Shown: positions 1 to 63,706 of the stretch, piece after piece | Layout: every line of letters starts with the position of its first letter | Position numbering within the stretch: the stretch's first letter is position 1 | Source: a bacterium | GTDB taxonomy: Bacteria; Patescibacteriota; Minisyncoccia; Moranbacterales; GWC2-37-73 | NCBI GenBank assembly: GCA_037140955.1 | Contig: JBAXDL010000002.1 | Location: 28,176 to 92,175, forward strand | DNA length: 64,000 nt | Direction: 5' to 3' | Made by a program: the position numbers and the translations under genes | Notes under the pieces: generated by a model | What the model was told of the DNA's origin: nothing | Seen by the model: the letters and a program-made list of their open reading frames with translations, nothing else | The model's database searches: none

Positions 1-2720
1 AGGTTGTTGATCAATTAAAGCTTATCGATGGAACTTCAAAAGTAAGTGTGCTTGGAGACAAATTGAACAATTTGCAAATAGAACTGGATACAGAAAAAAT
101 AGCCACCAATCATTTGTCTGTTTCTGATGTCATTGGAGCTTTGCAAACAGCAAATGGAATCTATAGCACTGAAACACTAAAAAATAGAAGCGACAAAGAA
201 ATAATAAAAATCAATGGAAGCATCTCATCAATTAATGATGCAGAAAACATTGTCATCTTGCCAAACCAAAACAATCCGACACTGCTCAAAGATGTTGCAA
301 CAATCTCCTTTGGTCCTGGAGAAATAACCAGCAATGTCCATTACACCCAGAAAAAATCCACCCCAAAAGAAGTGGCCTATGTCACAATTGCAAAAATAAA
401 AGGTGCCAACATCAGTTCTGTTGCCAGCGTCATCACGGAAAAATTAGACATCATTAAAAAGCAAAAAGAATTTTCAAATATTGATTTTTCAGTTTTGCGA
501 GATGATGGACAAACAGCACATGAAGAAATTTCGACTCTCACCAAGCATTTAATTTTTTCCATTTTAATTGTGGTGATAATCTTGATGGCTTTTCTTGGCA
601 TGAGAAATTCATTGATCGTGGCCATTTCAATCCCACTGACATTGCTCACCTCTTTTGGCATTGGGCTTTTGGCTGGACAAACAGTCAACCGCATCACACT
701 TTTTGCTTTGATTTTGGCACTAGGACTTTTGGTTGATGATGCCATTGTTATTATTGAAAATGTGCATCGCACCATCAAAAACAATCCTGGCAAGGAAAAA
801 TCAGCATTGATAATTCAAGCAGTGGATGAAGTTGGCATGGGCGTGTTCATGTCGACAATCACAATTTTATTGGCTTTTATTCCAATGGCATTTGTGAGTG
901 GCATGATGGGACCATACATGAGTCCAATTCCATTTTTTGTTTCAGTCACCCTGTTGGTCTCCTTGTTTATTGCCTTTACTATAAATCCAGCTCTGACAGG
1001 ATTTTTCAGCACGCATGAAACTGAAGAAAAAGAAAATATTTTTGTGAAAACAATTCACAAAATTGAAAATGCCTATGCAAAATTAATCGGAAAATTAACC
1101 CAAGACAAACGAAAGAAAAACCTTGTACTAATCAGCGCTGCGGTTTTGCTGTTTATTTCTCTTTTGTTGCCACTGTTTAAAATTGTGCAATTTCGCATGC
1201 TACCAAAGGCCAACAAAGAGCAATTCTATATCTATCTTGATATGCCATCCTACATGACATATGACACAACAAACAAAGTTGCCAATGAACTTGAAAAAAG
1301 CGCGCTGGACTATGGCGAAGTTACCAGTGTTGAAAGTTTCGTTGCCACCGCACCAATTTCAGATTTCAATGGTCTTTTCAAAGGAAGCTTCATGCGCTCA
1401 GGCGAAAATCAAGCAACTTTGAAAATAAACCTCACACCAAAAAATCAGCGCAAGCAAACATCAGAACAAATTGCCATGATTCTCAGAGAAAAACTTTCCA
1501 AGGATGTTCTGACAAATGAACCTGATGCAAAAATAACAATAGTTGAAGATCCACCAGGACCACCAGTGCGCAGCACTTTCTTTTTGAAAGTTCAAGGCAA
1601 TGATCAGCAACTGCTAGATGCAACCGCCAAAGATTTGGAACAATTTGCCAAAAACATTCCTGGCATTGTTGATTTGAGAACAACCAGCGCGCAAAGATCA
1701 GTGGAAAAACAATATTCTATCGATTTTGAAAAAGCTGGAAGACTAGGAATTCAGGCGCAAGCAATAATTGAAACATTGCACATCTCCGTTTCAGGCTTTA
1801 ACGTTGCTCGATATTCAGCTGCGATGAACGACGGCGGGCGTCAAACTGAGCAGCAATTTGCCATCGTGCGCATGCGCAAGGATGATCGACAAGACATCAA
1901 CAATCTTGCAAATATTACCATCAAAAGTTCCAATGGAAACACTGTGCCAATTTCCGAGCTTTTGATTGAACAACCACTTTCAAAAGTCAGTGAAATTGCC
2001 ACTGACTCAAGACAGCAAGTCACCTATGTCAGCGGAGAAATGGGAGCGCGCAGCGTGATGTATGCAGTTTTTGATTTGTTTCCAAAACTTTTCAAGTATA
2101 AACTCAGTGACGGAACTGGACATATTGCTTCTTGGTCGCCACTTGGTGTTACCTTGGAAAATTCAGCAGGCCAACAAGTTGAAATCAAAATTGATGGCGA
2201 ATGGAAATTAACCCTAGAAATTTTCAGAGATCTAGGCATTGCCATGGGAATAGCATTATTACTGATCTATTTCGTGCTTGTCATTCAACTAAAGTCAATC
2301 ATAACCCCCCTATTAATCATGGCAACAATTCCACTAGCGATGATTGGAGTGCTGGGTGGATTTGCTATTTTAGCAGCAACCAAGGGGACATATTTCAATG
2401 CCACTTCCATGATTGGAGTTATCGCTCTTTCAGGAATTGTGGTTAAAAATGCCATCATATATCTTGCTTATCTTGATGAGCTCAAGGAGCGCAAAATGGC
2501 ACTTACCGAGGCATTGATGGAAACTGGACGCGTAAGATTGCTCCCAATACTTTTGACCTCTATGACAGCCATTCTTGGCTCAATGACAATCATTGCTGAT
2601 CCTGTTTGGGAAGGACTTGCTTGGGCTATTATTTTCGGACTTTCTGTTTCAACCATTTTAACCCTAATCATTTTCCCATTGCTCTATCAAACATTTGAAA
2701 GCAAAAAGTGGGAGAAATAA
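1..2720 (+). CDS. RND-family efflux transporter permease (AcrB/AcrD/AcrF-like), 5' end lies outside the window
   Basis: The reading frame is open from base 3, so the listed GTG at 48 is not the true start. Translation ...VVDQLKLIDGTSKVSVLGDKLNNLQIELD is a typical RND periplasmic-loop motif. Two blocks of multiple TM helices separated by large soluble domains, about 890 aa visible. Confidence 0.8.
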   Translation, partial: VVDQLKLIDGTSKVSVLGDKLNNLQIELDTEKIATNHLSVSDVIGALQTANGIYSTETLKNRSDKEIIKINGSISSINDAENIVILPNQNNPTLLKDVATISFGPGEITSNVHYTQKKSTPKEVAYVTIAKIKGANISSVASVITEKLDIIKKQKEFSNIDFSVLRDDGQTAHEEISTLTKHLIFSILIVVIILMAFLGMRNSLIVAISIPLTLLTSFGIGLLAGQTVNRITLFALILALGLLVDDAIVIIENVHRTIKNNPGKEKSALIIQAVDEVGMGVFMSTITILLAFIPMAFVSGMMGPYMSPIPFFVSVTLLVSLFIAFTINPALTGFFSTHETEEKENIFVKTIHKIENAYAKLIGKLTQDKRKKNLVLISAAVLLFISLLLPLFKIVQFRMLPKANKEQFYIYLDMPSYMTYDTTNKVANELEKSALDYGEVTSVESFVATAPISDFNGLFKGSFMRSGENQATLKINLTPKNQRKQTSEQIAMILREKLSKDVLTNEPDAKITIVEDPPGPPVRSTFFLKVQGNDQQLLDATAKDLEQFAKNIPGIVDLRTTSAQRSVEKQYSIDFEKAGRLGIQAQAIIETLHISVSGFNVARYSAAMNDGGRQTEQQFAIVRMRKDDRQDINNLANITIKSSNGNTVPISELLIEQPLSKVSEIATDSRQQVTYVSGEMGARSVMYAVFDLFPKLFKYKLSDGTGHIASWSPLGVTLENSAGQQVEIKIDGEWKLTLEIFRDLGIAMGIALLLIYFVLVIQLKSIITPLLIMATIPLAMIGVLGGFAILAATKGTYFNATSMIGVIALSGIVVKNAIIYLAYLDELKERKMALTEALMETGRVRLLPILLTSMTAILGSMTIIADPVWEGLAWAIIFGLSVSTILTLIIFPLLYQTFESKKWEK

Positions 2721-2797
2721 AATTCACGCTCAACAAAAAAACGCCATAAAACTTGTAATCAGTGGCGTTTTTTTTGTTTTTCAGATAAACTAATATT

Positions 2798-3832
2798 ATG
2801 AAATACAAGCTATATACAACTTCCTTCAAAGCTTGGGATGCCATGATTGAGGCAATCGATGGAGCATCAAAATCAATATACCTTGAAATGTATATTTTTG
2901 AACGCGACACCACTTCAAGTCATGACTTCATTGGCAAGCTGAAACAAAAAGCCCGTGATGGTGTGCGAGTCGTGATTGTGGCTGATGCCTATGGCAGCAA
3001 GAACCTGAAAAATGAATTGGCAAAATCAATGCAAGCAGCTGGCATTGAGCTTATTTTTTTTAGTCATTGGCTGCGGCACATTCACAGAAAAATATTAATC
3101 GTCGACAAAAAAATAGCCTTTGTGGGTGGGGTCAATATTGGCAAGGAATTTGCTCACTGGGATGATTTGCAACTTCGCATGAAAGGTGGAATTGTCAAAA
3201 GAATCTTGAAATCATTTGCCTATACCTATGAAATGGCTGGCGGAAAAGATCACAAAATTTTGCACTTGAAAAATGGAAAATTCACAGCAAAATTAAAATT
3301 TTTGATCATGGAGCATTGGCCAACCAAAAACATTCATACCCTGAAAAGTCATTACATCGAAAAAATTTCTAACGCCAAAAAAAGTATTCAAATTGCAACT
3401 CCATATTTCACTCCGCCACGCTGGCTCAGCTCCCTGCTCGACAGTGCCGCCAGCAGAGGCGTCGCAATTGAAATTCTCATTCCAAGCGATGTTGATTTAA
3501 AAATAATGAACAATGTGAACCGCCACTACATGAACAAATTGAATCCCTCGGGAGTAAAGTTTTATTTGTCAAAAAAAATGAATCATGCCAAGCTTCTTAT
3601 TGTTGATCATGAAGAAGGATTGATTGGTTCGCAAAACATTGACCTTGCTTCCTTTCAATTGAACTCTGAAGTAGGGATATTTTTTAAAGAAAAAAAATTG
3701 CTAACAGAACTGGAAACAACCATCAAAAAATGGAAACAGAATTCAGAAATATTCAAACCACAAAAACACAAAATGCGATTTATTGACTATGTCATCCTGG
3801 CCCTGTCAAAAATATTATATCCAATATTATAG
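2798..3832 (+). CDS. PLD-superfamily protein with two HKD motifs (cardiolipin-synthase-like, no N-terminal TM helices)
   Basis: Two HxKxxxxD motifs: HRKILIVDKKIAFVGGVNIG and HAKLLIVDHEEGLIGSQNID. 344 aa. Confidence 0.7.
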   Translation: MKYKLYTTSFKAWDAMIEAIDGASKSIYLEMYIFERDTTSSHDFIGKLKQKARDGVRVVIVADAYGSKNLKNELAKSMQAAGIELIFFSHWLRHIHRKILIVDKKIAFVGGVNIGKEFAHWDDLQLRMKGGIVKRILKSFAYTYEMAGGKDHKILHLKNGKFTAKLKFLIMEHWPTKNIHTLKSHYIEKISNAKKSIQIATPYFTPPRWLSSLLDSAASRGVAIEILIPSDVDLKIMNNVNRHYMNKLNPSGVKFYLSKKMNHAKLLIVDHEEGLIGSQNIDLASFQLNSEVGIFFKEKKLLTELETTIKKWKQNSEIFKPQKHKMRFIDYVILALSKILYPIL

Positions 3833-4014
3833 CCACAAAAAAGAGCACCCTCCAAAGACACACAGATAATTCAGAAATACTATAGAATTTTTTTGTGAAA
3901 CCTATTTCTTATGAAGCAACAGCAAGCGAGAGCGAGCTCTTAGCGAAGCAGTTATAGTTCCCAACTGCAAGCGTGCTGAAAAAGAAATAGCGTGAACAGA
4001 AAAATATCACTACT

Positions 4015-5262
4015 ATGCCAAAAATTCAAATTACCGCCAAGGGTATCAGAGCTGCACTAAAAAAATATACACCATATCAATCACTAACAGAATACATCTG
4101 GAATGGTTTTGACGCTCAAGCATCAACCATTGAAATAAACTATATCGCCAACGAATTGGGAGGAATCGAATCAATTTCAATCAGTGATAATGGCTATGGC
4201 ATTCCACATGAAAAATTGCAAGATAAATTTGAACCAGTTTTTGAATCAAAAAAAGCCCTCGAAAACAAACTCAAAAAAAATCTCTCAGCTATTCATGGAA
4301 AAAACGGAATTGGACGATTGACCTTTTTCACTTTTGCCAGAAATTCATCATGGAAAACAACATATTCCAGCGGCCAAGAAAATTTGACCTATGAAATATA
4401 TGCCAACGCTGAAAACATCAACCTATACACCGGCATCAACGCCACACCAAAAAAGACCACCGAGCAAACCGGCACAACAACAACATTTTCTGGAATTTTT
4501 GGATTGACAGCCTCTCAACTTGAAGAAAAATTTCAAGAATATTTGCTCAAAGAATTTGCCTGGTTTTTGGCACTCAACAAAAAGCGCAATTTTTCAATTC
4601 TAATCAACGGCATTGCTATTGATTTCAAAAATATTGTTGCCGACAGTGAACAATTTGAAATATTGCATCCAGACACACAAACCTTGTTTGAAGTTTCATA
4701 CATCAGATGGGAACAAAGACTCAACAATGAACCATCACGCTATTATTACATGAACGCACAGCATCAGGAGCGCTGGAAAGAGCCAACCGCCATCAAGAAC
4801 AAGGGTGAGCAATTTTATCACAGCCTTTTTGTCGAAAGTTCATATTTTGACTCTTTTGGATTTCAAAGTTCTTCGATTCAAACTCAAGATGCTCTCATTG
4901 TTGGAACCAGGAGCGATTCGCAATTTCGATTCTTGCGAAGAAAATTGGCAAACACTTTGCGCATCAAAAGAAGACCATTTCTCAAGGGTTTTGCTGAGCA
5001 ACTCTTGCTTGAATATGAGCAAAAAAATATTCTTCCAGTTGATGCCAAAGAAAATCTAAAACAAACAATCAGGATTTTATACGAAATGCAACCAAAAATT
5101 TTCAATTCGCTGAATCTTGAACAGAAAAAAATATTAGTCGGCTTGCTTGGAGCGCTCCTTGAAAGCAACAAAAATGAAGCCATTGCAGGACTTCTTGGCG
5201 GAATCATTGAGCTTACCGCTGATGAACAAGCAGAACTTGCCCAACTATTGTTGCCGGTATAG
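4015..5262 (+). CDS. Standalone GHKL (HATPase_c-like, Bergerat fold) ATPase
   Basis: N-box-like EYIWNGFDAQAS, G1 box ISDNGYGI and G2-like HGKNGIGRLTFF near the N-terminus. No kinase dimerisation/His domain and no MutL or topoisomerase C-terminal domains recognised. Confidence 0.55.
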   Translation: MPKIQITAKGIRAALKKYTPYQSLTEYIWNGFDAQASTIEINYIANELGGIESISISDNGYGIPHEKLQDKFEPVFESKKALENKLKKNLSAIHGKNGIGRLTFFTFARNSSWKTTYSSGQENLTYEIYANAENINLYTGINATPKKTTEQTGTTTTFSGIFGLTASQLEEKFQEYLLKEFAWFLALNKKRNFSILINGIAIDFKNIVADSEQFEILHPDTQTLFEVSYIRWEQRLNNEPSRYYYMNAQHQERWKEPTAIKNKGEQFYHSLFVESSYFDSFGFQSSSIQTQDALIVGTRSDSQFRFLRRKLANTLRIKRRPFLKGFAEQLLLEYEQKNILPVDAKENLKQTIRILYEMQPKIFNSLNLEQKKILVGLLGALLESNKNEAIAGLLGGIIELTADEQAELAQLLLPV

Positions 5263-54901: not shown

Positions 54902-56401
54902 TTATGATTTTTTAGTGGTACCCTTAGATGAACTCTTATATCCAGCCTGTTTTCTTGTTATATCAGCCGTTATTTCATATCTCATCAGTTTACTTCTGCG
55001 ACCAGTTTTCAAGTCAACAGCATACCATTTATACTTTCCGTAGTTCTTTTTTGCGATATAATAAACACTAAATGCTCCTTTTTTATCAGTCTTAACTGAG
55101 ATTGGTGGATAATAGCTCAAATTAGAACGAGAAAAATACAAATTAACCATTGAATTTTTGGAAAATCGCTTGCCTGTTTGGGTTATTTCACCACCTCTTT
55201 TAACTTTACTATAACTTTGATTTATCTGACGCTTTGGCTCTTCAACCTCATCTTCATCATCTTTTTTTTCAACAGATGCTGAAACCGGCGTTGAAATTGG
55301 AATTGCAGCTGCAGGAGCCTGAATTGAAAAGGCAGCAGAAAGTGCAGATTCATTGGCAAAATCATCATAAGCTGAAACACGATATTGATATGCGGTTGAA
55401 GGATTTATTGTTAAATCAGAATAACTAAGACTTGTCGTGGTTGCAATCTCAATATCGTTTCTATAGATCTTATATCCAGCAACTGCTACAATGTCTGATG
55501 ATGCTGCCCATGAAAGATCGGCTTGATTTGCGGAAACAACATTAACACTCAAACTTCCGGGCACTGTTGGTGCAATCAAGTCTCCGCCAGTATTTAGAAT
55601 TGAAAAAGATATAATATAATCATCAAGATTCACATTCAATGAATCATCTTGGCAACGCACATAATATGAATATGTTGACCCATTAGAAAGCCCAGTAACT
55701 GTCGTTGAATGAATAGTTCTTGCGCCAGTGTTTGCAAATTGTGTCATTGAAGCATAAGGAGTATCTACAGATGTTGAATAGGCACAAGTGGCATTTTCAT
55801 TAGTCATGAGTGAGATATTAGAACTAGTTGTGCCTGCTGAACGCGCCGAAGTTGGAGCTTTGTTCAAGCGAATTGGAGGATTTTCAACTGTTACGGAAAT
55901 TGCAGCAGACGCCTTTGCGCCATAATCGACAGTACTCGCATCACATGACAATGAATGAACACCATCAGCAACACCTGTAGTGTCCCATGTTATGCCATAT
56001 GGAAAAACAGTGTCCTGCTCGCCAAGATTAAAGCCATCTAATTTAAACTGAACCCCAGAAATTGGGACATCAATCGGAAGCGGGCTAGTTGCATCAGCAG
56101 TAACAGAAACAGACGCACCAGAAACTGTTGAGCCATCCACCGGAGCAGTAATACTACGCGATACAGTCATAGCACTAACGCTGTGCACGAAAATGTCATT
56201 TCTTTGATATTGATCTTCTTTAATTGCTAATAGTCCCTTAAGTTTAGAATCACGAAAAGAATCACCTTGCCTGACAAGTGCGAAGAATTTTTTGGAAAAT
56301 TTTACAATAGAAATAAATGAGTCAATATAAAACTGCACACAATAAACCAGAAGGATTGAAAAAGTGATGCTTATTATTTTTCTTTTTTTTATTTTTATCA
56401 T
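54902..56401 (-). CDS. Cell-surface protein with bacterial Ig-like and fibronectin type III domains (paralog 1)
   Basis: N-terminal anchor identical to paralog 2. Ig-like domain ...SGVQFKLDGFNLGEQDTVFPYGITWDTTGVADGVHSL.... FN3 ...APTVPGSLSVNVVSANQADLSWAAS...GYKIYRN...YQYRVSAYD... Confidence 0.55.
   Translation of the reverse strand: MIKIKKRKIISITFSILLVYCVQFYIDSFISIVKFSKKFFALVRQGDSFRDSKLKGLLAIKEDQYQRNDIFVHSVSAMTVSRSITAPVDGSTVSGASVSVTADATSPLPIDVPISGVQFKLDGFNLGEQDTVFPYGITWDTTGVADGVHSLSCDASTVDYGAKASAAISVTVENPPIRLNKAPTSARSAGTTSSNISLMTNENATCAYSTSVDTPYASMTQFANTGARTIHSTTVTGLSNGSTYSYYVRCQDDSLNVNLDDYIISFSILNTGGDLIAPTVPGSLSVNVVSANQADLSWAASSDIVAVAGYKIYRNDIEIATTTSLSYSDLTINPSTAYQYRVSAYDDFANESALSAAFSIQAPAAAIPISTPVSASVEKKDDEDEVEEPKRQINQSYSKVKRGGEITQTGKRFSKNSMVNLYFSRSNLSYYPPISVKTDKKGAFSVYYIAKKNYGKYKWYAVDLKTGRRSKLMRYEITADITRKQAGYKSSSKGTTKKS
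56261..56398. repeat. 138-bp direct repeat (copy 1) covering the 5' end of paralog 1
   Basis: Identical to 57191-57328 apart from 1-2 mismatches. Encodes ...KIKKRKIISITFSILLVYCVQFYIDSFISIVKFSKKFFALVRQGDSF. Confidence 0.85.
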
Positions 56402-56431: not shown

Positions 56432-57334
56432 TTATAAAACCATTAGGCTGCTTGGTGCACTTGGTGCTGTCACATCAGTCAAAACAGAAAAATTTATAGC
56501 GGTATAATCACTAGCATTTTGATTTCCAACCAAATCCTGGCAACGCACATAATATGGATAAGAATTTCCTCCAATAAGTCCAGTGATCGTAGCAGAATGA
56601 GCTGTGCCACCAATTGCTGCAAATGCGTTTGTCATTGAGGCATATGGAACGCCAGCAGAAGTTGAATATTTGCAAGTTGCACTTTCATTGGTTGTAAGTG
56701 TTATATTTGTTTGTGTTGTTCCTATGGCAAGGGCCGTGGATGGACCTCCAAGCAAACGAACCGGGGCTGTATTATCAACCGTTACTGAAGTTACAGGAGA
56801 TACCTGTCCAGTGCCATATCTTGTGCTGCTATTGTATGTAATAATTGTCAATGAGTGAACCCCGTCTGTAGTGGTGGTTGTATCCCAAGGAAAAATAGCC
56901 GTGGCATCATTTCCCACAAGTGTCAACATAGAATTTGCCACGGTGGCTTTTGCGCCAAGATTAGCTCCATCTAATCGGAATTGAATACCATTAACAATAG
57001 CTGGTTCAGCTGGCTGACTTATAGCTGTAGCTGTCAAATTGAATGTCCCATGAATTACAATACCAGCAGTTGGTGCTATTATGGAATCAGAAATTGTTGC
57101 AGCCGAAACAGCATGCACAAAAATATTCTCTTTTTGGTATTGATCATTTTTAAATTCTAATAATCCTTTTTTCTTAGCAACATCAAAAGAATCACCTTGC
57201 CTGACAAGTGCAAAGAATTTTTTGGAAAATTTTACAATAGAAATAAATGAGTCAATATAAAACTGCACACAATAAACCAGAAGGATTGAAAAAGTGATGC
57301 TTATTATTTTTCTTTTTTTTATTTTTAAGTGCAT
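56432..57334 (-). CDS. Cell-surface Ig-like-domain protein (paralog 2, shorter)
   Basis: Same N-terminal 45 aa. Ig-like domain ...NGIQFRLDGANLGAKATVANSML...FPWDTTTTTDGVHSL... Confidence 0.5.
   Translation of the reverse strand: MHLKIKKRKIISITFSILLVYCVQFYIDSFISIVKFSKKFFALVRQGDSFDVAKKKGLLEFKNDQYQKENIFVHAVSAATISDSIIAPTAGIVIHGTFNLTATAISQPAEPAIVNGIQFRLDGANLGAKATVANSMLTLVGNDATAIFPWDTTTTTDGVHSLTIITYNSSTRYGTGQVSPVTSVTVDNTAPVRLLGGPSTALAIGTTQTNITLTTNESATCKYSTSAGVPYASMTNAFAAIGGTAHSATITGLIGGNSYPYYVRCQDLVGNQNASDYTAINFSVLTDVTAPSAPSSLMVL
57191..57328. repeat. 138-bp direct repeat (copy 2) covering the 5' end of paralog 2
   Basis: See copy 1. Confidence 0.85.
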
Positions 57335-57407
57335 GAAAAAAATTTACTTTTTAACCTACTTTTAAATATATTATATCACAAAATCAACAATATCACACAC
57401 GACATAT

Positions 57408-58109
57408 TTAGTTATTTTCCCTAATTCCACATATTTTAAAGTTTTTTTCTATTTTTTCCTTTATCTTGGCTAAATCTATTTTTTTGTTTAGTGACACTGT
57501 GCGCAAATTTTGATCAAGAATTACTCCGTCTCTATATTCTTGCAAATAATATGCATCAGCACCATTGATCCATTTGGCAATTTTTTTAAAATCTTCTTCA
57601 TTGTGAATCCCAGGAACAACAGTGGTGCGAAACTCGTAGGCCAAGTCACTTTCCATGATCAATTTCACACTTAACTTTATTTTTTCAATATCAACATTAA
57701 GTCCAACAGTCTTACTGTAATTTTCTGGAGAATTTTTAATATCCATGGCAATAAAATCCACCAATTTTTCATCAATAACCTTTTTCAAAACTTCTGGCCG
57801 GCTGCCATTAGAATCAAGCTTAACTTTAAAACCAAGATCTTTGATTTTTTTGATAAATGGAATAATATCACTTTGAATAGTTGGCTCTCCCCCAGTAATA
57901 CAAACTCCTTCCAATTTTCCAATACGTTTTTTCAAATGCTCAAAAAATTCTTTTTCCAATTCATTTGGATACGGAAATTGAGACTGAAGGACAAGTTCTG
58001 GATTATGACAAAAGCCACAACGAAAACTGCAACCAACAGTGAAAACCGTGGTTGCAATTGTTCCTGGAAAGTCTATTAGGGTTAGTTTTTGATAACCACC
58101 AATGCGCAT
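57408..58109 (-). CDS. nrdG: Anaerobic ribonucleoside-triphosphate reductase activating protein (radical SAM)
   Basis: CSFRCGFCHN (CxxxCxxC), ...GVCITGGEP... Confidence 0.85.
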   Translation of the reverse strand: MRIGGYQKLTLIDFPGTIATTVFTVGCSFRCGFCHNPELVLQSQFPYPNELEKEFFEHLKKRIGKLEGVCITGGEPTIQSDIIPFIKKIKDLGFKVKLDSNGSRPEVLKKVIDEKLVDFIAMDIKNSPENYSKTVGLNVDIEKIKLSVKLIMESDLAYEFRTTVVPGIHNEEDFKKIAKWINGADAYYLQEYRDGVILDQNLRTVSLNKKIDLAKIKEKIEKNFKICGIRENN

Positions 58110-58279
58110 ACGCGTAATTTTAAAACTTACATATATTCCAGCAATGTGAGGCTATTTTTGTTTTTGGCCAATAGCCGGCGACAGCGGCTTCTTGAGCTTT
58201 TGGATATTGTGCATTTATCCAAAAGCGTGCCAAAAATAAAAATAGTCGAGCAATTGCGGGCACATCATAATTTAGAAAA

Positions 58280-58546
58280 TTAGCAAGAAACACAGGCGCC
58301 TTGCTCAACCATATATTCTGCGCGGTCTCCAAACTCTGCCTGCTTGCCCTTGTTCCATTGAGAAATTGGGCGAATATACCCAACCACACGAGAATAAACT
58401 TCTGTTGCTTGAAAATTTCGAAGCACTGAATCTTTTTGATGACAAGACTTGCATTTAGCAAAGGTTTCTTTGCCGACAGAATATGGCATATATTCTTCAT
58501 TGTGCTCTAGGCTTTTTTGACAATCATGACATGTGTGTTTTTTCAT
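58280..58546 (-). CDS. Standalone NrdD-C-terminal-like mini-protein: Zn-ribbon + glycyl-radical motif (candidate spare-part for NrdD)
   Basis: CHDC...CKSC, then TEVYSRVVGYIRPISQWNKGKQAEFGDRAEY. 29 of 31 residues match the NrdD C-terminus TEVYSRVVGYIRPVEQWNKGKQAEFGDRKEY. The DNA is also similar (58330-58420 versus 58835-58925). Confidence 0.7.
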   Translation of the reverse strand: MKKHTCHDCQKSLEHNEEYMPYSVGKETFAKCKSCHQKDSVLRNFQATEVYSRVVGYIRPISQWNKGKQAEFGDRAEYMVEQGACVSC

Positions 58547-58624
58547 GTTTTTGTTTTTAATTATTTTTTATTTATACTGTTTAATGAAATCTAAATACTT
58601 TTTTACTTAAAGTGCAAGCTTAGA

Positions 58625-58770
58625 TATATTTTATTTTCATCATTGAAAAACAATTACAACTTTCCAAATAACACCAAGAAGGCTTGTTTTTAATTATCTT
58701 TCAAAATCTATGATTTTGTTCAGATAATATATGCCCTTGGGTGAGGTGAAAAAATAAAAAATATCTCAAC
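58625..58770 (-). promoter_or_regulatory. Conserved upstream element, copy 1 (ahead of the mini glycyl-radical gene): a duplicate of the nrdD upstream region
   Basis: atatattttattttcatcattgaaaaacaattacaactttccaaataacaccaagaaggcttgttttt ... aggtgaaaaaataaaaaatatctcaactttct versus 61048-61160. Confidence 0.55.
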
Positions 58771-58779
58771 TTTCTTGTT

Positions 58780-60975
58780 TTATTTTTTCTCCGCACAAGC
58801 AACTTCGCATTTTCCATTTTCATATTCCTTGCGATCTCCAAATTCAGCCTGCTTTCCTTTGTTCCATTGTTCAACGGGGCGAATATACCCAACCACGCGA
58901 GAATAAACTTCGGTTTTTTGTTCAATAACACACTTTGGACAAACTGGTTGTTCGCCGTTGATATATCCATGCACCGGACAAATACTGAAAGTTGGAGAAA
59001 GCGTGAAATATGGCAAAGAATAATTTTCCGCAATCTTTCTGACCAGATTTTTCACCATTTCAATGTCCCAAATTCTTTCCCCCAAGAATCCATGAAGCAC
59101 CGTTCCTCCTGTATATTTTGTTTGCATTTTTTCCTGCAAATCTAAAGCCTCAAAAATATCTTCTGTGAAGTGAACTGGCAATTGTGAAGAATTGGTATAA
59201 TATGGCTCTGCACCTTTTGTTCGAACCGCCACATTGTTTGCAAAAATAATTTCTGGATATTTTTCACGATCCTTTCTGGCCAAGCGATATGATGTTCCTT
59301 CAGCTGGAGTTGCTTCAAGATTGTACATGCTGCCAGTTTCCTCTTGAAATTTGAGCATTTTCTCTCGCATATGCACCAAAATTTCCTCTCCCAAATCCTG
59401 TCCTTCTTTGGTGGTAATATCCTTTCCAATTAAATTTACCAAAGCCTCATTTAATCCAACCAAGCCAATGGTTGAAAAATGATTTGACCAATAAGACCCC
59501 TGACGCATTTTGATCGCATCTAAATAAAATTTGGTGTATGGATATAATCCTTTTTCTGTTAGACTTTCTACTAATTTTCTTTTTGTATCAAGACTTTCCT
59601 TGGCCACATCCATCAATGAATCAAGTTGCACAAAAAATTCTTTTTTGTTTTTTGCGGCATAACCAATACGTGGCATGTTTATTGTTACCACCCCAATTGA
59701 GCCAGTTAGTGGATTTGCGCCAAAGAGTCCTCCACCTCGTTTGCGCAATTCTCGATTGTCCAAACGAAGACGACAGCACATAGAACGAGCATCATCAGGA
59801 TCCATGTCTGAGTTAACAAAGTTTGCAAAATATGGAATGCCATACTTTGCTGTCATTTCCCAAACAGCATCAAAGCGCTTGTCACTCCAATCAAAATCTT
59901 TGGCAATGTTGTATGTCGGAATTGGGAAAGTGAAGATTCGCCCGCTAGCATCACCTTCAGTCATCACCTCAGCAAAGGCGCGATTGATCATGTTCATTTC
60001 ATCTTGAAATTCACCATAAGTTTCTTTTTGTGGAACCCCACCAATGATGACAGCTTCTTTTGCAAGCATTCCTGGTGCGGTCATGTCCATAGTGATGTTT
60101 GAAAATGGTGTTTGAAATCCCACGCGCGTTGAAACATTCATATTGAAAACAAAAGATTGAATTTCTTGTTTAACTTGCTCATAGGTCAATTTGTCATAGC
60201 GCACAAATGGAGCAAGAAGTGTGTCAAAATTTGAAAAAGCTTGCGCTCCAGCAACCTCACCCTGCAAAGTATAAATGAAATTTACCATTTGCCCAAGAAT
60301 TGAACCAAGATGTTTTGCTGGCTTGCAGGCAACCTTTCCAGGCACACCAGTAAATCCCCTGCGAAGCAAATCTTGCAAATCCCAACCACAACAATAGGCA
60401 GCAACCAGCTGCAAATCATGAATGTGAATATCACCACTCTCATTGGCAGATCGAATTTCCTTAGAATAAACACGATTCATCCAATATTTAGAACTAACGA
60501 TTGAAGCGATGTAATTGTTAAGGCCTTGCAAAGAGTATGCCATGTTTGCGTTCTCTTTTACTTGCCAATCTAATTCTTGAATATATTTATCCACTAAACT
60601 TACAGCCTCATCCAGAGAGTGTTCTGTTTCGCGAATTTTTCGATGCTGTTCTCGATACAAAATATATGCCTTGGCAGTTTCCTCATAATCCAAAACCATC
60701 AGCACACGCTCAACCAAATCTTGCAATTGTTCAATTGCTGGAATTTCACCCTTTTTAAAATTTTTGTTCAGCAATTGCACAACTTTGTCAGCAACTTTTT
60801 TGGCATCATCCTTTGTTCCTTCTTTTGTTATTAAAAATGCTCGCTCAACCGCAACTGCAATCTTTTTCTGGTCAAAAGGCACAACCACTCCACTTCTCTT
60901 TACAATCTTTTTCACCAAATTCACAACTTTTTTCTTTTCAATCTTTTTTTCTTCCACCTTCTTTTGATTTTTCAT
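58780..60975 (-). CDS. nrdD: Anaerobic ribonucleoside-triphosphate reductase (class III) with N-terminal ATP-cone
   Basis: ATP-cone VVKRSGVVVPFDQKKIAVAVERAF. C-terminal glycyl-radical motif SRVVGYIRP preceded by a Cys cluster CPVHG...CPKC. 731 aa. Confidence 0.9.
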   Translation of the reverse strand: MKNQKKVEEKKIEKKKVVNLVKKIVKRSGVVVPFDQKKIAVAVERAFLITKEGTKDDAKKVADKVVQLLNKNFKKGEIPAIEQLQDLVERVLMVLDYEETAKAYILYREQHRKIRETEHSLDEAVSLVDKYIQELDWQVKENANMAYSLQGLNNYIASIVSSKYWMNRVYSKEIRSANESGDIHIHDLQLVAAYCCGWDLQDLLRRGFTGVPGKVACKPAKHLGSILGQMVNFIYTLQGEVAGAQAFSNFDTLLAPFVRYDKLTYEQVKQEIQSFVFNMNVSTRVGFQTPFSNITMDMTAPGMLAKEAVIIGGVPQKETYGEFQDEMNMINRAFAEVMTEGDASGRIFTFPIPTYNIAKDFDWSDKRFDAVWEMTAKYGIPYFANFVNSDMDPDDARSMCCRLRLDNRELRKRGGGLFGANPLTGSIGVVTINMPRIGYAAKNKKEFFVQLDSLMDVAKESLDTKRKLVESLTEKGLYPYTKFYLDAIKMRQGSYWSNHFSTIGLVGLNEALVNLIGKDITTKEGQDLGEEILVHMREKMLKFQEETGSMYNLEATPAEGTSYRLARKDREKYPEIIFANNVAVRTKGAEPYYTNSSQLPVHFTEDIFEALDLQEKMQTKYTGGTVLHGFLGERIWDIEMVKNLVRKIAENYSLPYFTLSPTFSICPVHGYINGEQPVCPKCVIEQKTEVYSRVVGYIRPVEQWNKGKQAEFGDRKEYENGKCEVACAEKK

Positions 60976-61047
60976 ATTGTTTTCTCCCCTAAGAGTTATA
61001 TTTTTTAAAAAAATTTTAATTCAAACCAACCCACGTAAACAGTTTGA

Positions 61048-61160
61048 ATATATTTTATTTTTATCACTGAAAAACAATTGCAACCTTTTCAATATAACAC
61101 CAATGATACTTGTTTTAGGTGAAAAAATAAAACATATTCAAACTTTCTCAAAAATACAAT
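61048..61160 (-). promoter_or_regulatory. Conserved upstream element, copy 2 (between nrdR and nrdD): candidate NrdR operator and promoter region
   Basis: atatattttatttttatcactgaaaaacaattgcaaccttttcaatataacaccaatgatacttgtttt aggtgaaaaaataaaacatattcaaactttct. Confidence 0.5.
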
Positions 61161-61176
61161 TTTGCTAAAATATAAA

Positions 61177-61632
61177 TCAATCTTCGACTGACATCTTCTC
61201 AACTTCTCTGCGAAAACTTTCAGCTGTCTTGAATGATTTGTACACACTGGCAAAGCGCAGATATGCCACATCATCCAACTCTTTTAATTTGTCTAAAATC
61301 ATTTTCCCAATTTCCTTGCTTGTGATCTCATTTGATTCTCTGGCCTGAATTTCATATTCAATATCGCCAATTGCTTTTGAAATTTTTTCTTCACTCACTG
61401 GTCTTTTCTCCAGGGCCTTGTGCAAACCAACCTCAATCTTTTTGCGATCATACTCTTGTTTTGAGCCATCACGCTTGATAACACTTAATTTCATTATTTC
61501 CATTTCTTCATAGGTACTGAAACGCGATTGGCATTTTTCGCATTCCCTGCGTCTACGAATGGCCCTTCCCTCATTGGTGTCGCGCGAGTCCACCACCTTT
61601 GTTTCGCTGTGCGCGCAAAAAGGACAAATCAT
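61177..61632 (-). CDS. nrdR: Transcriptional repressor NrdR (Zn-ribbon + ATP-cone)
   Basis: MICPFCAHSETKVVDSRDTNEGRAIRRRRECEKCQSRFSTYE. Confidence 0.9.
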   Translation of the reverse strand: MICPFCAHSETKVVDSRDTNEGRAIRRRRECEKCQSRFSTYEEMEIMKLSVIKRDGSKQEYDRKKIEVGLHKALEKRPVSEEKISKAIGDIEYEIQARESNEITSKEIGKMILDKLKELDDVAYLRFASVYKSFKTAESFRREVEKMSVED

Positions 61633-61984
61633 GTGTTTATTAAATTTCCAATTTCCAACTTTAAATTTTCAATGAAATTCAAAATTATAAATTCAAATTT
61701 CCAATTTAATTTTTAATTTTTTTGTTTTTGATTTTTTATCGCAAATGCAACAAAAAAAGACATTACAATAAAACTTGACAACTTTTATTTTTCACTTTTT
61801 TTGAAACTTGACTTTTTTGATTTTTGTGTACTTTTATACTACATGTTGTGTATTACTAGTTCATTATACCACAAGCCAATAATATGCCAAGCATCCCATT
61901 TTAAGCTATTTTTCAAAGTTATGCACAGAAAAAACTCAAAAAAAACAACCCATTTCCATGAATTGTTTTTTTGATTTTAATTTT

Positions 61985-63706
61985 TTACAAGGCTGTTTCT
62001 TGCCATTTTTGAATTGAAATTGGAAGTGGACAATACAATGTTTCACTCGTAGAAGAGCAAGGCACACCACAGTCTGCATTTGCTGGATACGTTGTTCCAC
62101 CACCGCATGTAGTATCCGTTTTAGCACACATTGGTTTAGCAGTTGTAATTGTTTTTCCTGCTTTATCAGTAGTATTGCAAACAGCGCCAGTTGAAGTCAT
62201 AGGACAAATATATGAATATACTGGAATGCAAGTCTTTTTTGCCGTGCAACTTGCTGGAGAACCACCGCTTTTTCCGTTGCATGTCCAAGACCAAGGTCCA
62301 GATCCTGATACTGCTGGAGTTGAACCATCACCACAGAGACCAACAGGATCAGCTGAAGAAGGAGGGGAAAAAAGATAATCATTGCCTGGATTTGAATATG
62401 AACCACAAACTCCATCTACCGGCGAATTTATCCCAACTGTGACACTTTGATTAACAATGGAAATATTCGATGAATTCAAACACTCCATATTGTAAGTTGT
62501 TGGTACTGTTATGCCACTAAAAATACTTGAACCAGCTGCTGGATCAGGAGCCCAGCCGAGTATTGAACCATAACTATCTATAAACCTACAAGAGGCAGTA
62601 TTGGTTGATAACCATGAAATTGTCGAAGACCCTCCCTGATCAACACTAGTCGGAGACGCTGTCAATGAAAGTGTTGGAGTAGTGCAAGATGAATAATCAA
62701 GAGTTGCAAGTGAACCAGTACCACTATGACAAGTGCAGTCAACAACATAACCAATACCTGGTGGATCTAGAAAGGTTGCGCAGCTAGCATCTGCAGATTC
62801 ATATGGTGCAGCAACCTTAGTATTGTTGTACAAACTAGAACATCCTACCCCACAAGTATACTTTTTGTTGGCAGAGCAAGAGGTTCCACTGCAGGTCCAG
62901 GACCAAGGTCCAGATCCTGATACCGCTGAAGCTGTGCCAGATGAACAAAAGTTGGCAGTTGGAGCAGAGAGGAAATATTGACCATTTGATGAGCCGCATC
63001 CTGATTGAGTTGCAGAGCAACTTGCAGCTGCTCCCCCATATTGTCCAAGGCAACTCCAAGACCAAGCACCAGAAGCTGAAGCTGTGCCAGCTTGGCAAAG
63101 ATTAGAGGTTGGAGCTGACGGGAATGATTGACCATTAGCAGAACCACAGACACCAGGAATTGGGTCATGACACTCACCACCGCCAGAACTAATAGTGCCA
63201 TTATCGCATGACATATAAGTAAAGCCAACATTTGAATTTATAGCATTATCAAATTTTCCAGAAAAATTATAGGCCACTTCCATATTTAAGATAACACCAC
63301 ATTGTTTTGGGTTATCAGATGTTCCCCAATAAGAAGAATAGAAAAAACAATTCCTATTTGCATAGCAAGATGCATCTGAACCACCATTTTTTCCAGCACA
63401 TGTCCAATTCCATGTTCCAGCAAAAGAAACTGGTACCCATGAACCATCTCCACAAAGATTTGAACCTGGTGAATTTAAAAATGATCCACCATGTGATGAG
63501 CCACAAGAACCATTGATTTTTTCATAAGCAATACATGCAGTTTCATTGCTTGGACTAGCTACTGTTTTACATCCCCATTTCCATGCGCCAGCAGGAGAAC
63601 CTGCGACATATGAAACAGCAGTACTTATCTTACTTCCAACAGCACAAAATTCTTGACCCATGATTGGAATTGAAGTTCTCATTGTCCCATCAGCTGAACC
63701 ACACAC
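61985..63706 (-). CDS. Large secreted Cys/Gly/Ser-rich protein built from a roughly 48-aa repeated module (C-terminal part)
   Basis: Repeated module CGS.NGQ.F.SAPT.NLC..GTASA.SG.GPWSW.C.G..GG.AASC.A, at least five copies. Confidence 0.5.
   Translation of the reverse strand: MCGSADGTMRTSIPIMGQEFCAVGSKISTAVSYVAGSPAGAWKWGCKTVASPSNETACIAYEKINGSCGSSHGGSFLNSPGSNLCGDGSWVPVSFAGTWNWTCAGKNGGSDASCYANRNCFFYSSYWGTSDNPKQCGVILNMEVAYNFSGKFDNAINSNVGFTYMSCDNGTISSGGGECHDPIPGVCGSANGQSFPSAPTSNLCQAGTASASGAWSWSCLGQYGGAAASCSATQSGCGSSNGQYFLSAPTANFCSSGTASAVSGSGPWSWTCSGTSCSANKKYTCGVGCSSLYNNTKVAAPYESADASCATFLDPPGIGYVVDCTCHSGTGSLATLDYSSCTTPTLSLTASPTSVDQGGSSTISWLSTNTASCRFIDSYGSILGWAPDPAAGSSIFSGITVPTTYNMECLNSSNISIVNQSVTVGINSPVDGVCGSYSNPGNDYLFSPPSSADPVGLCGDGSTPAVSGSGPWSWTCNGKSGGSPASCTAKKTCIPVYSYICPMTSTGAVCNTTDKAGKTITTAKPMCAKTDTTCGGGTTYPANADCGVPCSSTSETLYCPLPISIQKWQETAL

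Follow-up and report, generated by a model that had tools for sequence, protein, structure and literature searches.

Why should a bacterium encode the radical-bearing tail of a ribonucleotide reductase (RNR) a second time, as a small protein of its own, right beside an intact gene for the complete enzyme? The question is raised by a 64,000-nucleotide stretch of DNA, hereafter the window, from a bacterium of the Patescibacteriota (Minisyncoccia, Moranbacterales, GWC2-37-73; GenBank assembly GCA_037140955.1, contig JBAXDL010000002.1, positions 28,176 to 92,175 of the forward strand), in which, as an earlier note on this DNA had observed, an 88-aa open reading frame (ORF) at 58280–58546 lies between nrdD, encoding a class III RNR, and nrdG, encoding a radical-SAM activating enzyme. 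Many strict anaerobes depend on class III RNR alone for their DNA building blocks, and this enzyme is irreversibly cut by oxygen at its radical glycine. We propose that the product of the ORF, here called the mini, is very likely a functional glycyl-radical domain (GRD) that acts in trans for class III RNR, and we lean slightly towards spare-part repair as its specific role in the window genome. A detached copy of the NrdD radical tail is, in other words, very probably a detachable or spare radical module. The features on which this argument rests are the following:

58280–58546, minus strand: mini gene, encoding a free-standing NrdD-type GRD (88-aa ORF with an ATG start; Pfam NRDD, E 4e-13)
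58442–58531, minus strand: zinc ribbon of the mini, its ligand pairs (C6, C9 ... C32, C35) separated by a family-specific insert of ~22 residues (E18-Y19-M20-P-Y22), as defined in a 40-sequence alignment
58310–58402, minus strand: core of the glycyl-radical loop in the mini (E49-M79), with 27/31 residues the same as in the core of NrdD
58379–58381, minus strand: codon of the predicted radical glycine of the mini, G56, in the motif SRVVGYIRP
58780–60975, minus strand: nrdD, class III RNR of 731 aa with ATP-cone and NRDD domains (Pfam NRDD, E 3.9e-201, and ATP-cone; NCBIfam NF006126, 1072 bits)
58780–58980, minus strand: C-terminal GRD of NrdD itself, with zinc site C666/H669/C679/C682 (sequence and BLASTP alignment)
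58888–58890, minus strand: codon of the NrdD radical glycine, G696

The mini protein (MKKHTCHDCQKSLEHNEEYMPYSVGKETFAKCKSCHQKDSVLRNFQATEVYSRVVGYIRPISQWNKGKQAEFGDRAEYMVEQGACVSC, 88 aa) matches the Pfam family NRDD (PF13597) above its gathering score, with residues 4–78 aligned to profile positions 509–562 of 562, i.e., to the last 54 positions of the profile and essentially to the GRD alone. Seventy-five residues of the mini map to these 54 positions, and an insert of ~22 residues separates the two pairs of zinc ligands, C6-x-x-C9 and C32-x-x-C35, which are invariant in 40 family members and align to the zinc site of NrdD on either side of the insert. Against the adjacent 731-aa NrdD, BLASTP aligned mini residues 46–88 with NrdD residues 686–727 at 34/44 identical positions (E 5e-20). 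The RVxG[FWY] fingerprint is present as S52-R-V-V-G56-Y-I-R-P, with R53, V55, G56, and Y57 invariant in the 40 members, as are the longer elements Y51-S-R, V55-G-Y-I-R-P, Q63-W-N, G67-K, E71, and R75 of the loop. In and around the ribbon, the same 40 sequences share C6, H7, C9, Y22, K31, C32, and C35 without exception, while E18, Y19, and M20 are almost invariant, and family members usually end in a short cysteine-containing tail. An AlphaFold2 (AF2) prediction for the mini places beta strands at residues 4–6, 18–24, and 27–32 and a hairpin at 45–52/57–64 with G56 at its tip. The description of the ORF in the earlier note, as an intact gene for an autonomous zinc-ribbon and glycyl-radical mini-protein derived from the NrdD C-terminus, is thus borne out by the NRDD match, the invariant CxxC pairs, and the SRVVGYIRP motif. 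Its further statement that the mini is a near-exact copy of the NrdD tail stands as to similarity over the 31 residues it quoted (TEVYSRVVGYIRP...EY) and needs correcting as to the count, which is 28/31 identical residues and not 29/31.

Judged from its sequence, the mini is a fragment-sized homologue of NrdD and not an NrdD. Only profile positions 509–562 match, and the barrel and the finger-loop radical cysteine of NrdD are absent from it; its score against TIGR02487 is 37.7 bits, far below the cutoff of 326. A Pfam scan at E ≤ 0.1 returned NRDD and three weak unrelated hits, with PF01228 absent, and an NCBIfam scan returned NrdD models and one weak match to a zinc-finger family, with no GrcA or pyruvate formate-lyase (PFL)-type model among the matches. 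Neither NCBIfam nor Pfam holds a model dedicated to the mini family, PHROGs has no dedicated family and matched the mini only with the C-terminus of the NrdD family phrog_487, and a sequence search of the PDB with both the mini profile and the single sequence gave no match even at E 10.

The evidence that carries our proposal comes from related genomes. One genome per GTDB species was scanned, which yielded 579 confirmed stretches; the best 80 loci among them were analysed and, with L001 (P0082; L002 and L003 are duplicate places of L001) and the window, make 82 distinct loci, at each of which ORFs were called and NrdD and NrdG were identified with phmmer. A search of related genomes for short ORFs linked to nrdD, as the earlier note had advised, finds the family again and again, with the order nrdD-mini-nrdG in ~70 of the 80 species-representative loci and, in many, a gap of only 1–40 nt between nrdD and the mini. 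The loci fall into three states. State A (38 loci, the window and its closest relatives included) combines the mini with an intact NrdD, in which the radical glycine always lies 14 residues after the last zinc cysteine. In state B (37 loci, out of the 75 with an adjacent nrdD), the zinc ribbon of NrdD is kept (CPxHGY...CPxC) and the RVVGY motif and everything downstream of it are gone, with C-termini such as '...CPKCIAEQSEKGYLKAVPAKVEK*', '...CPQCVADAGVKDYAIAE*', and '...CPKCVIEQKTEVFLKVGEEELREKQEKIIKK*', which leaves the intact loop of the mini as the sole glycyl-radical motif seen there. State C comprises seven loci where the mini has no adjoining nrdD, one of which (L044) starts at a contig edge with nrdG just downstream and is uninformative.

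The place at which the state-B enzymes stop is narrowly defined. Their tails after the last zinc cysteine peak at a length of 13 residues (10/37) and measure 12–16 residues in 20/37, which means that these NrdDs mostly end at or beside the position just before the radical glycine. Oxygen cuts activated NrdD at the radical glycine, and this matches the end point of most state-B NrdDs; in E. coli NrdD, Sun et al. (1996) reportedly placed the radical at G681. Some tails that lack the glycine motif (L052, L033, L045, L056, L042, and L039) carry, at +13, a glycine with acidic residues after it (..FLKVGEEE.., ..FLVAGEDED..), which resembles a degenerate remnant of the strand that opens the loop. At a further locus, L057 (CP064994.1, a Moraniibacteriota genome and the only complete one in the set; 1584–4327), three overlapping, frameshifted ORFs stand in place of a single nrdD, and 25 residues are added to the C-terminus of the mini; the locus may be truly pseudogenised or may owe its state to assembly indel errors, and is uninformative.

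By every measure of constraint that we applied, the state-B NrdDs are not pseudogenes. Their ratio of nonsynonymous (dN) to synonymous (dS) divergence is 0.054, compared to 0.051 in state A, the finger-loop motif MCCRL is kept in 34/34 aligned state-B sequences, and of the 244 NrdD columns without variation in state A, 195 show none in state B either. When 70 NrdDs were placed on a neighbour-joining tree, state-A and state-B sequences were intermingled, and Fitch parsimony required at least 8 changes of state: L024 (B), for instance, is nested among state-A sequences, and L042 (B) pairs with L036 (A), and L052 (B) with L016 (A), as sisters. On this tree, the cis glycine loop has been lost at least eight times. 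That an enzyme which needs a glycyl radical stays constrained without a radical glycine of its own, and always with the mini next to it, argues strongly, in evolutionary terms, for the mini as the source of the radical in trans, and in about half of the related species, where the cis loop has been lost, the mini would be an obligate radical subunit.

In the mechanism that we propose, NrdG, the presumed activase of both NrdD and the mini, would recognise the zinc ribbon and glycine loop of the mini and abstract a hydrogen from G56, which stands in the same motif as G696 of NrdD. The radical-bearing hairpin would then dock in the NrdD barrel in place of the cis C-terminal loop, a step that is hard to avoid because of state B, and a thiyl radical would be generated on the finger-loop cysteine (SMCCRL), with catalysis as in any class III RNR. 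Since the window NrdD, which carries SMCCRL, still has its own intact GRD, the mini would there be a back-up, and it would restore NrdD that has been cut by oxygen at the radical glycine, much as GrcA/YfiD does for PFL, likewise cleaved by oxygen at its radical glycine (June 2026 review; 2021 YfiD study).

If both loops must fit the same barrel and the same activase, they are expected to be matched within each genome, and this is what we observe. The loop of the mini in state A has an identity of 0.89 to the cognate NrdD loop and of 0.79 to non-cognate ones, a difference reached in 0 of 10000 permutations in a test that ignores phylogeny. Lineage-specific substitutions (V to I at position 6 and I to L at position 10) are common to both copies and occur in equal numbers of genomes for each. 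Across the 38 loci, dS between the copies ranges from 0.06 (L071) up to saturation and dN from 0 to 0.19. The low value in L071 likely reflects recent gene conversion, and the loops of L072 are identical at 31/31 residues despite 12 synonymous differences. These patterns indicate that occasional gene conversion and selection both keep the loops of the mini and NrdD matched.

The family is large and, to all appearances, old. A search of 5.8 billion proteins gave 340 clusters homologous to the mini, so that the family holds at least that number; the best 120 of the 340 are all 80–113 aa long with 61–82% identity to the mini. The named organisms among the clusters are mostly Candidatus Moranbacteria or other Patescibacteria, across which the family is spread with identities down to 41%, and its members, where named, are entered in databases as 'anaerobic ribonucleoside-triphosphate reductase', 'ribonucleoside-triphosphate reductase', or 'hypothetical protein'. 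In a library of 1.84 billion representatives, the top 150 matches were all short (42–236 aa), nearly all of them running from a Met start to a point just past the glycine loop. Orthologues of the mini evolve with a dN/dS of ~0.14–0.19 (0.17 among state-A and 0.14 among state-B genomes), and the closest relatives of the window locus (81–82% identity) retain the cluster nrdR-nrdD-mini-nrdG intact, where the earlier note had allowed for an ORF that is absent or disrupted in close relatives. That note had also pointed to the similarity of the underlying DNA to the 3′ end of nrdD, which is real, though confined to 99 nt of the glycine-loop region at 83% identity (58313–58411 against 58822–58920); the N-terminal half of the mini has no DNA similarity to nrdD. 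Its reading of this similarity as a recent partial duplication did not survive: over the 31 codons of the two loop copies in the window dN is 0.115 and dS 0.75, with 7 of the 27 codons for identical residues differing synonymously, the N-terminal half lacks nrdD similarity and carries a family-specific insert, and the family is old, reaching down to 41% identity. The mini is thus, on this comparative evidence, an old gene under selection.

Very short ORFs (42–75 aa) with the glycine loop alone (EVYSRVVGY.RP..QWN.GK..EF) and no zinc ribbon were also seen among the proteins (P0190, P0204, P0213–P0220, and P0250–P0266) and at viral loci (L129, L132, L140, L142–L144, and L148–L153). Some of these may be gene fragments; others are Met-started and look complete.

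Homologues away from nrdD are found in settings of oxidative stress and in viruses. Six distant homologues (41–52% identity; L073, L077, L078, L080, L082, and L083), from metagenome-assembled genomes labelled Staskawiczbacteria, Parcubacteria, and in one case 'Saccharibacteria', make up the rest of state C and are not next to nrdD. At four of the six the homologue lies directly behind a Fur-family gene, often overlapping it, and the neighbours include an Fe/Mn superoxide dismutase (SOD), a ferritin/rubrerythrin-like gene, or desulfoferrodoxin, with a class I RNR gene nearby in two (L082 and L083). A metagenome scan gave a similar picture for its 16 closest loci (L165–L180), where a Fur-family gene is directly upstream in 11, with SOD at 5, a ferritin-like gene at 3, and desulfoferrodoxin at 1; a class I RNR gene is also near L165. 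The Fur-family regulators score best against PerR models, with 90–97 bits, about twice their Fur-model scores and below the curated cutoffs, which suggests that they are PerR-like. Viral stand-alone proteins of ~90–155 aa (most 100–135) share the CxxC...CxxC and glycine-loop architecture (alignment A3) and have the class motif CxxC..GGAvY..KCxxC..EVYSRVVGYLRP. They occur on ~43 of the 80 IMG/VR contigs fetched (L085–L127), with no nrdD or nrdG within 5 kb, and a 144-aa version annotated 'anaerobic ribonucleoside triphosphate reductase' is carried by the 38-kb archaeal virus ANMV-1 (L084, KP703175.1, 25525–25959). In this they parallel Y06I of phage T4, a viral homologue of GrcA.

The gene order and spacers of the window locus bear on how the mini may be expressed, and involve four further features:

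57408–58109, minus strand: nrdG, radical-SAM activating enzyme of NrdG2 type, 233 aa (TIGR02495, 8.4e-64, 214 bits against a cutoff of 131; Pfam Radical_SAM and Fer4_12)
58617–58775, minus strand: spacer upstream of the mini with the copied element (58617–58690 and 58736–58775), found as direct repeats D3, D9, and D13 with 80–83% identity
61041–61148, minus strand: original copy of the non-coding element upstream of nrdD, matched as 61041–61116 and 61109–61148
61177–61632, minus strand: nrdR, encoding the repressor of the nrd genes, at the head of the cluster nrdR-nrdD-mini-nrdG (ORF; relatives share the order, with Zn_ribbon_NrdR and ATP-cone domains)

The spacer between nrdD and the mini is 233 nt long and holds a second copy of the non-coding region upstream of nrdD itself, and a 32-nt core of the duplicated element occurs exactly twice in the window, with 0 occurrences expected. 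The duplication suggests that the mini may have an nrdD-like promoter or operator of its own. The element was not found before the mini in relatives with long spacers, and its duplication is therefore a local feature of the window. Inspection of the duplicated element by eye for palindromes resembling NrdR boxes gave nothing convincing, and an Rfam scan of 57300–62000 at E ≤ 1 gave no match. The spacer between the mini and nrdG contains, within 58150–58250, a 37-nt element with a 10-bp inverted repeat (GGCACGCTTTTGGATAAATGCACAATATCCAAAAGCT), which in the closest relative lies between nrdD and the mini (L247, 3859–3895) and has no Rfam match.

Beyond the cluster, two adjoining genes downstream of nrdG (54902–56401 and 56432–57334, minus strand; 499 and 300 aa) share a near-identical N-terminal stretch of ~50 residues (..KIKKRKIISITFSILLVYCVQFYIDSFISIVKFSKKFFALVRQGDSF) and then diverge into domains that resemble surface proteins; the pair may stem from a recent duplication in tandem or form a cassette system. 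On the other side, a 573-aa Cys- and Gly-rich ORF (61985–63706, minus strand) with repeated 'G(S)GPWSWTC.G' modules resembles a secreted or surface repeat protein.

How far does the evidence separate our proposal from other explanations? The ORF might be what is left of a recent partial duplication at the 3′ end of nrdD, without function and in decay; the 99-nt DNA similarity and the lack of a Shine-Dalgarno sequence would favour this. Against it stand the retention of an intact ORF across more than 80 genomes of species rank and 340 clusters of proteins, a dN/dS of ~0.15, the divergence of the window copies (dS 0.75, dN 0.115), and the conserved, family-specific N-terminal insert; conservation, dN/dS, and copy divergence led us to reject this reading, which we find hardly credible. 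The Shine-Dalgarno sequence, moreover, is absent in 75 of 82 family members, state-B members included, which makes its absence a common trait of the family and no indication of decay. The similarity could also stem from a collapsed or chimeric repeat in the assembly, a concern that the earlier note had raised. Apart from the repeat itself, nothing favours this; identity between the copies is only 83%, and the same gene order is found in independent assemblies from JGI, ENA, NCBI, and Logan; with diverged copies and an arrangement that recurs in dozens of independent assemblies, we rejected an artefact as virtually inconceivable. A regulator or decoy, which competes for NrdG or stores the radical and so tunes RNR activation without ever entering the active NrdD complex, would be in keeping with the full set of NrdG recognition elements in the mini (zinc ribbon and glycine loop) and with its place next to nrdG. 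It would, however, leave unexplained both state B, where NrdD is strongly selected and has no glycine of its own, and the residue-by-residue tracking of the cognate NrdD loop, and we consider it very unlikely.

The main rival to our reading makes the mini a second radical subunit in constitutive use, a routine or equal carrier with no particular link to oxygen damage in the window genome, state A being a redundant intermediate on the way to a two-subunit enzyme. The loss of the cis glycine loop at least eight times with the mini retained, the similar constraint on the mini in states A and B, and the tight coupling to nrdD in many loci (gaps of 1–40 nt) are all consistent with such a role. Pure redundancy, however, predicts something other than the purifying selection seen on both copies in 38 loci (dN 0–0.19, dS up to saturation), the PerR-like/SOD contexts point to oxidative stress, and the viral stand-alone copies fit a supplement or rescue role, so that we regard this alternative as unlikely while giving it some weight.

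Several points also count against our proposal. The repeated loss of the cis loop could make it the main radical carrier and not a repair part, and, as the state-B NrdDs retain their own zinc ribbon, a complex of NrdD and the mini would hold two ribbons. The mini of the window has no Shine-Dalgarno sequence and an A-rich leader, and consensus scans for promoters and terminators over 57300–61400 did not exceed the shuffled expectation. As to sampling, the loci were chosen conditional on the presence of the mini, so that they count losses of the cis loop and not of the mini; the loss of the glycine in state B was scored at the level of the locus, and a second intact nrdD may lie elsewhere in such a genome; the nrdD content of the state-C genomes is known only at the mini locus; and the NrdD tree is a neighbour-joining tree without support values. 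Weighed against these points are the PerR-like/SOD operons, the viral stand-alone copies, the synteny with nrdD and nrdG, and the nrdD-like upstream copy of the mini's own. A GrcA-like spare-part or trans role, which the earlier note had put forward by analogy, remains the best-supported function given the loss of the cis glycine in relatives, the PerR-like operons, and the viral versions, and an autonomous GRD of class III RNR that serves as back-up or spare part in the window genome is, as an overall explanation read from sequence and gene context, fairly probable.

Among known systems, the closest in action are GrcA/YfiD of E. coli and Y06I of phage T4, likewise small free-standing proteins that consist in essence of the C-terminal GRD of their parent, bear the RVxG[FWY] fingerprint, are presumed to be activated by the activase of the parent, cover more of the domain than oxygen cleavage removes, and have phage-borne counterparts. 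The mini differs from GrcA in that it is homologous to the GRD of NrdD (PF13597) and not to that of PFL (PF01228; IPR011140), has a zinc ribbon that GrcA lacks, is encoded inside an nrdD-nrdG operon, and is the sole radical-bearing part at many loci, whereas the status of obligate subunit is not known for GrcA. The mini would thus work like GrcA/YfiD while standing outside that family, given the lack of PF01228 homology. It shares with the C-terminal GRD of NrdD, as seen in the structures from T4, T. maritima, and P. copri, a zinc site followed by a buried glycine hairpin and a near-identical loop; it departs from it in being a separate polypeptide, in its ~22-residue insert, in a first ligand pair of CxxC and not CxxH, and in the usual short cysteine-containing tail. 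Work on P. copri NrdD has described the GRD as a mobile unit that can become disordered. In the split class II RNR NrdJa/NrdJb of Pseudomonas aeruginosa, too, a C-terminal zinc-finger module is separate from the catalytic barrel, but that enzyme uses adenosylcobalamin, with no glycyl radical and no activase, and NrdJb bears reducing cysteines and not the radical. It would be an architectural analogue only, whose split layout (a barrel without its C-terminal module, and the module in an adjacent gene) is seen in the 37 state-B loci and not in the window, where the GRD of NrdD is intact. HpdC and BssB/BssC are small polypeptides associated with the catalytic subunits of glycyl radical enzymes (GREs) and are like the mini in size class, but have no glycyl radical and are not derived from a GRD.

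A trans-acting or spare GRD for class III RNR appears to be new. A June 2026 review names the formate lyases as the only GRE class with identified spare-part proteins, their existence in other classes being 'yet to be determined', and a 2021 study of YfiD likewise treats spare parts beyond PFL as an open question. In agreement with the earlier note, which knew of no such protein for NrdD, the full-text literature that we searched, a body that covers few subscription-journal papers, holds no description of a spare part for NrdD or of a split class III RNR, and published surveys of insertions and extensions in RNRs, and of the RNRs of phages, mention neither a split nor a spare class III GRD.

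We think it rather probable that the mini belongs to a large and so far unrecognised superfamily of autonomous proteins of the NrdD glycyl-radical type, which would comprise operon back-ups in Patescibacteria, the sole radical subunit, in about half of these lineages, of a two-polypeptide class III RNR not described before, PerR-regulated stress genes, and viral versions that possibly sustain dNTP synthesis in the host. The comparison provides ready-made test systems in natural NrdDs that lack the glycine and have a 10-kDa partner that carries it, in the PerR-linked versions, and in the viral versions. If our proposal is correct, hundreds of database entries (80–130 aa, 'anaerobic ribonucleoside-triphosphate reductase') would need correction, a two-subunit class III RNR would be defined, and the viral copies would represent a new kind of viral auxiliary gene. 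Spare-part repair of GREs would then reach beyond PFL to the synthesis of DNA precursors, and this would account for how Patescibacteria, with their tiny genomes and exposure to oxygen, keep an oxygen-sensitive RNR working.

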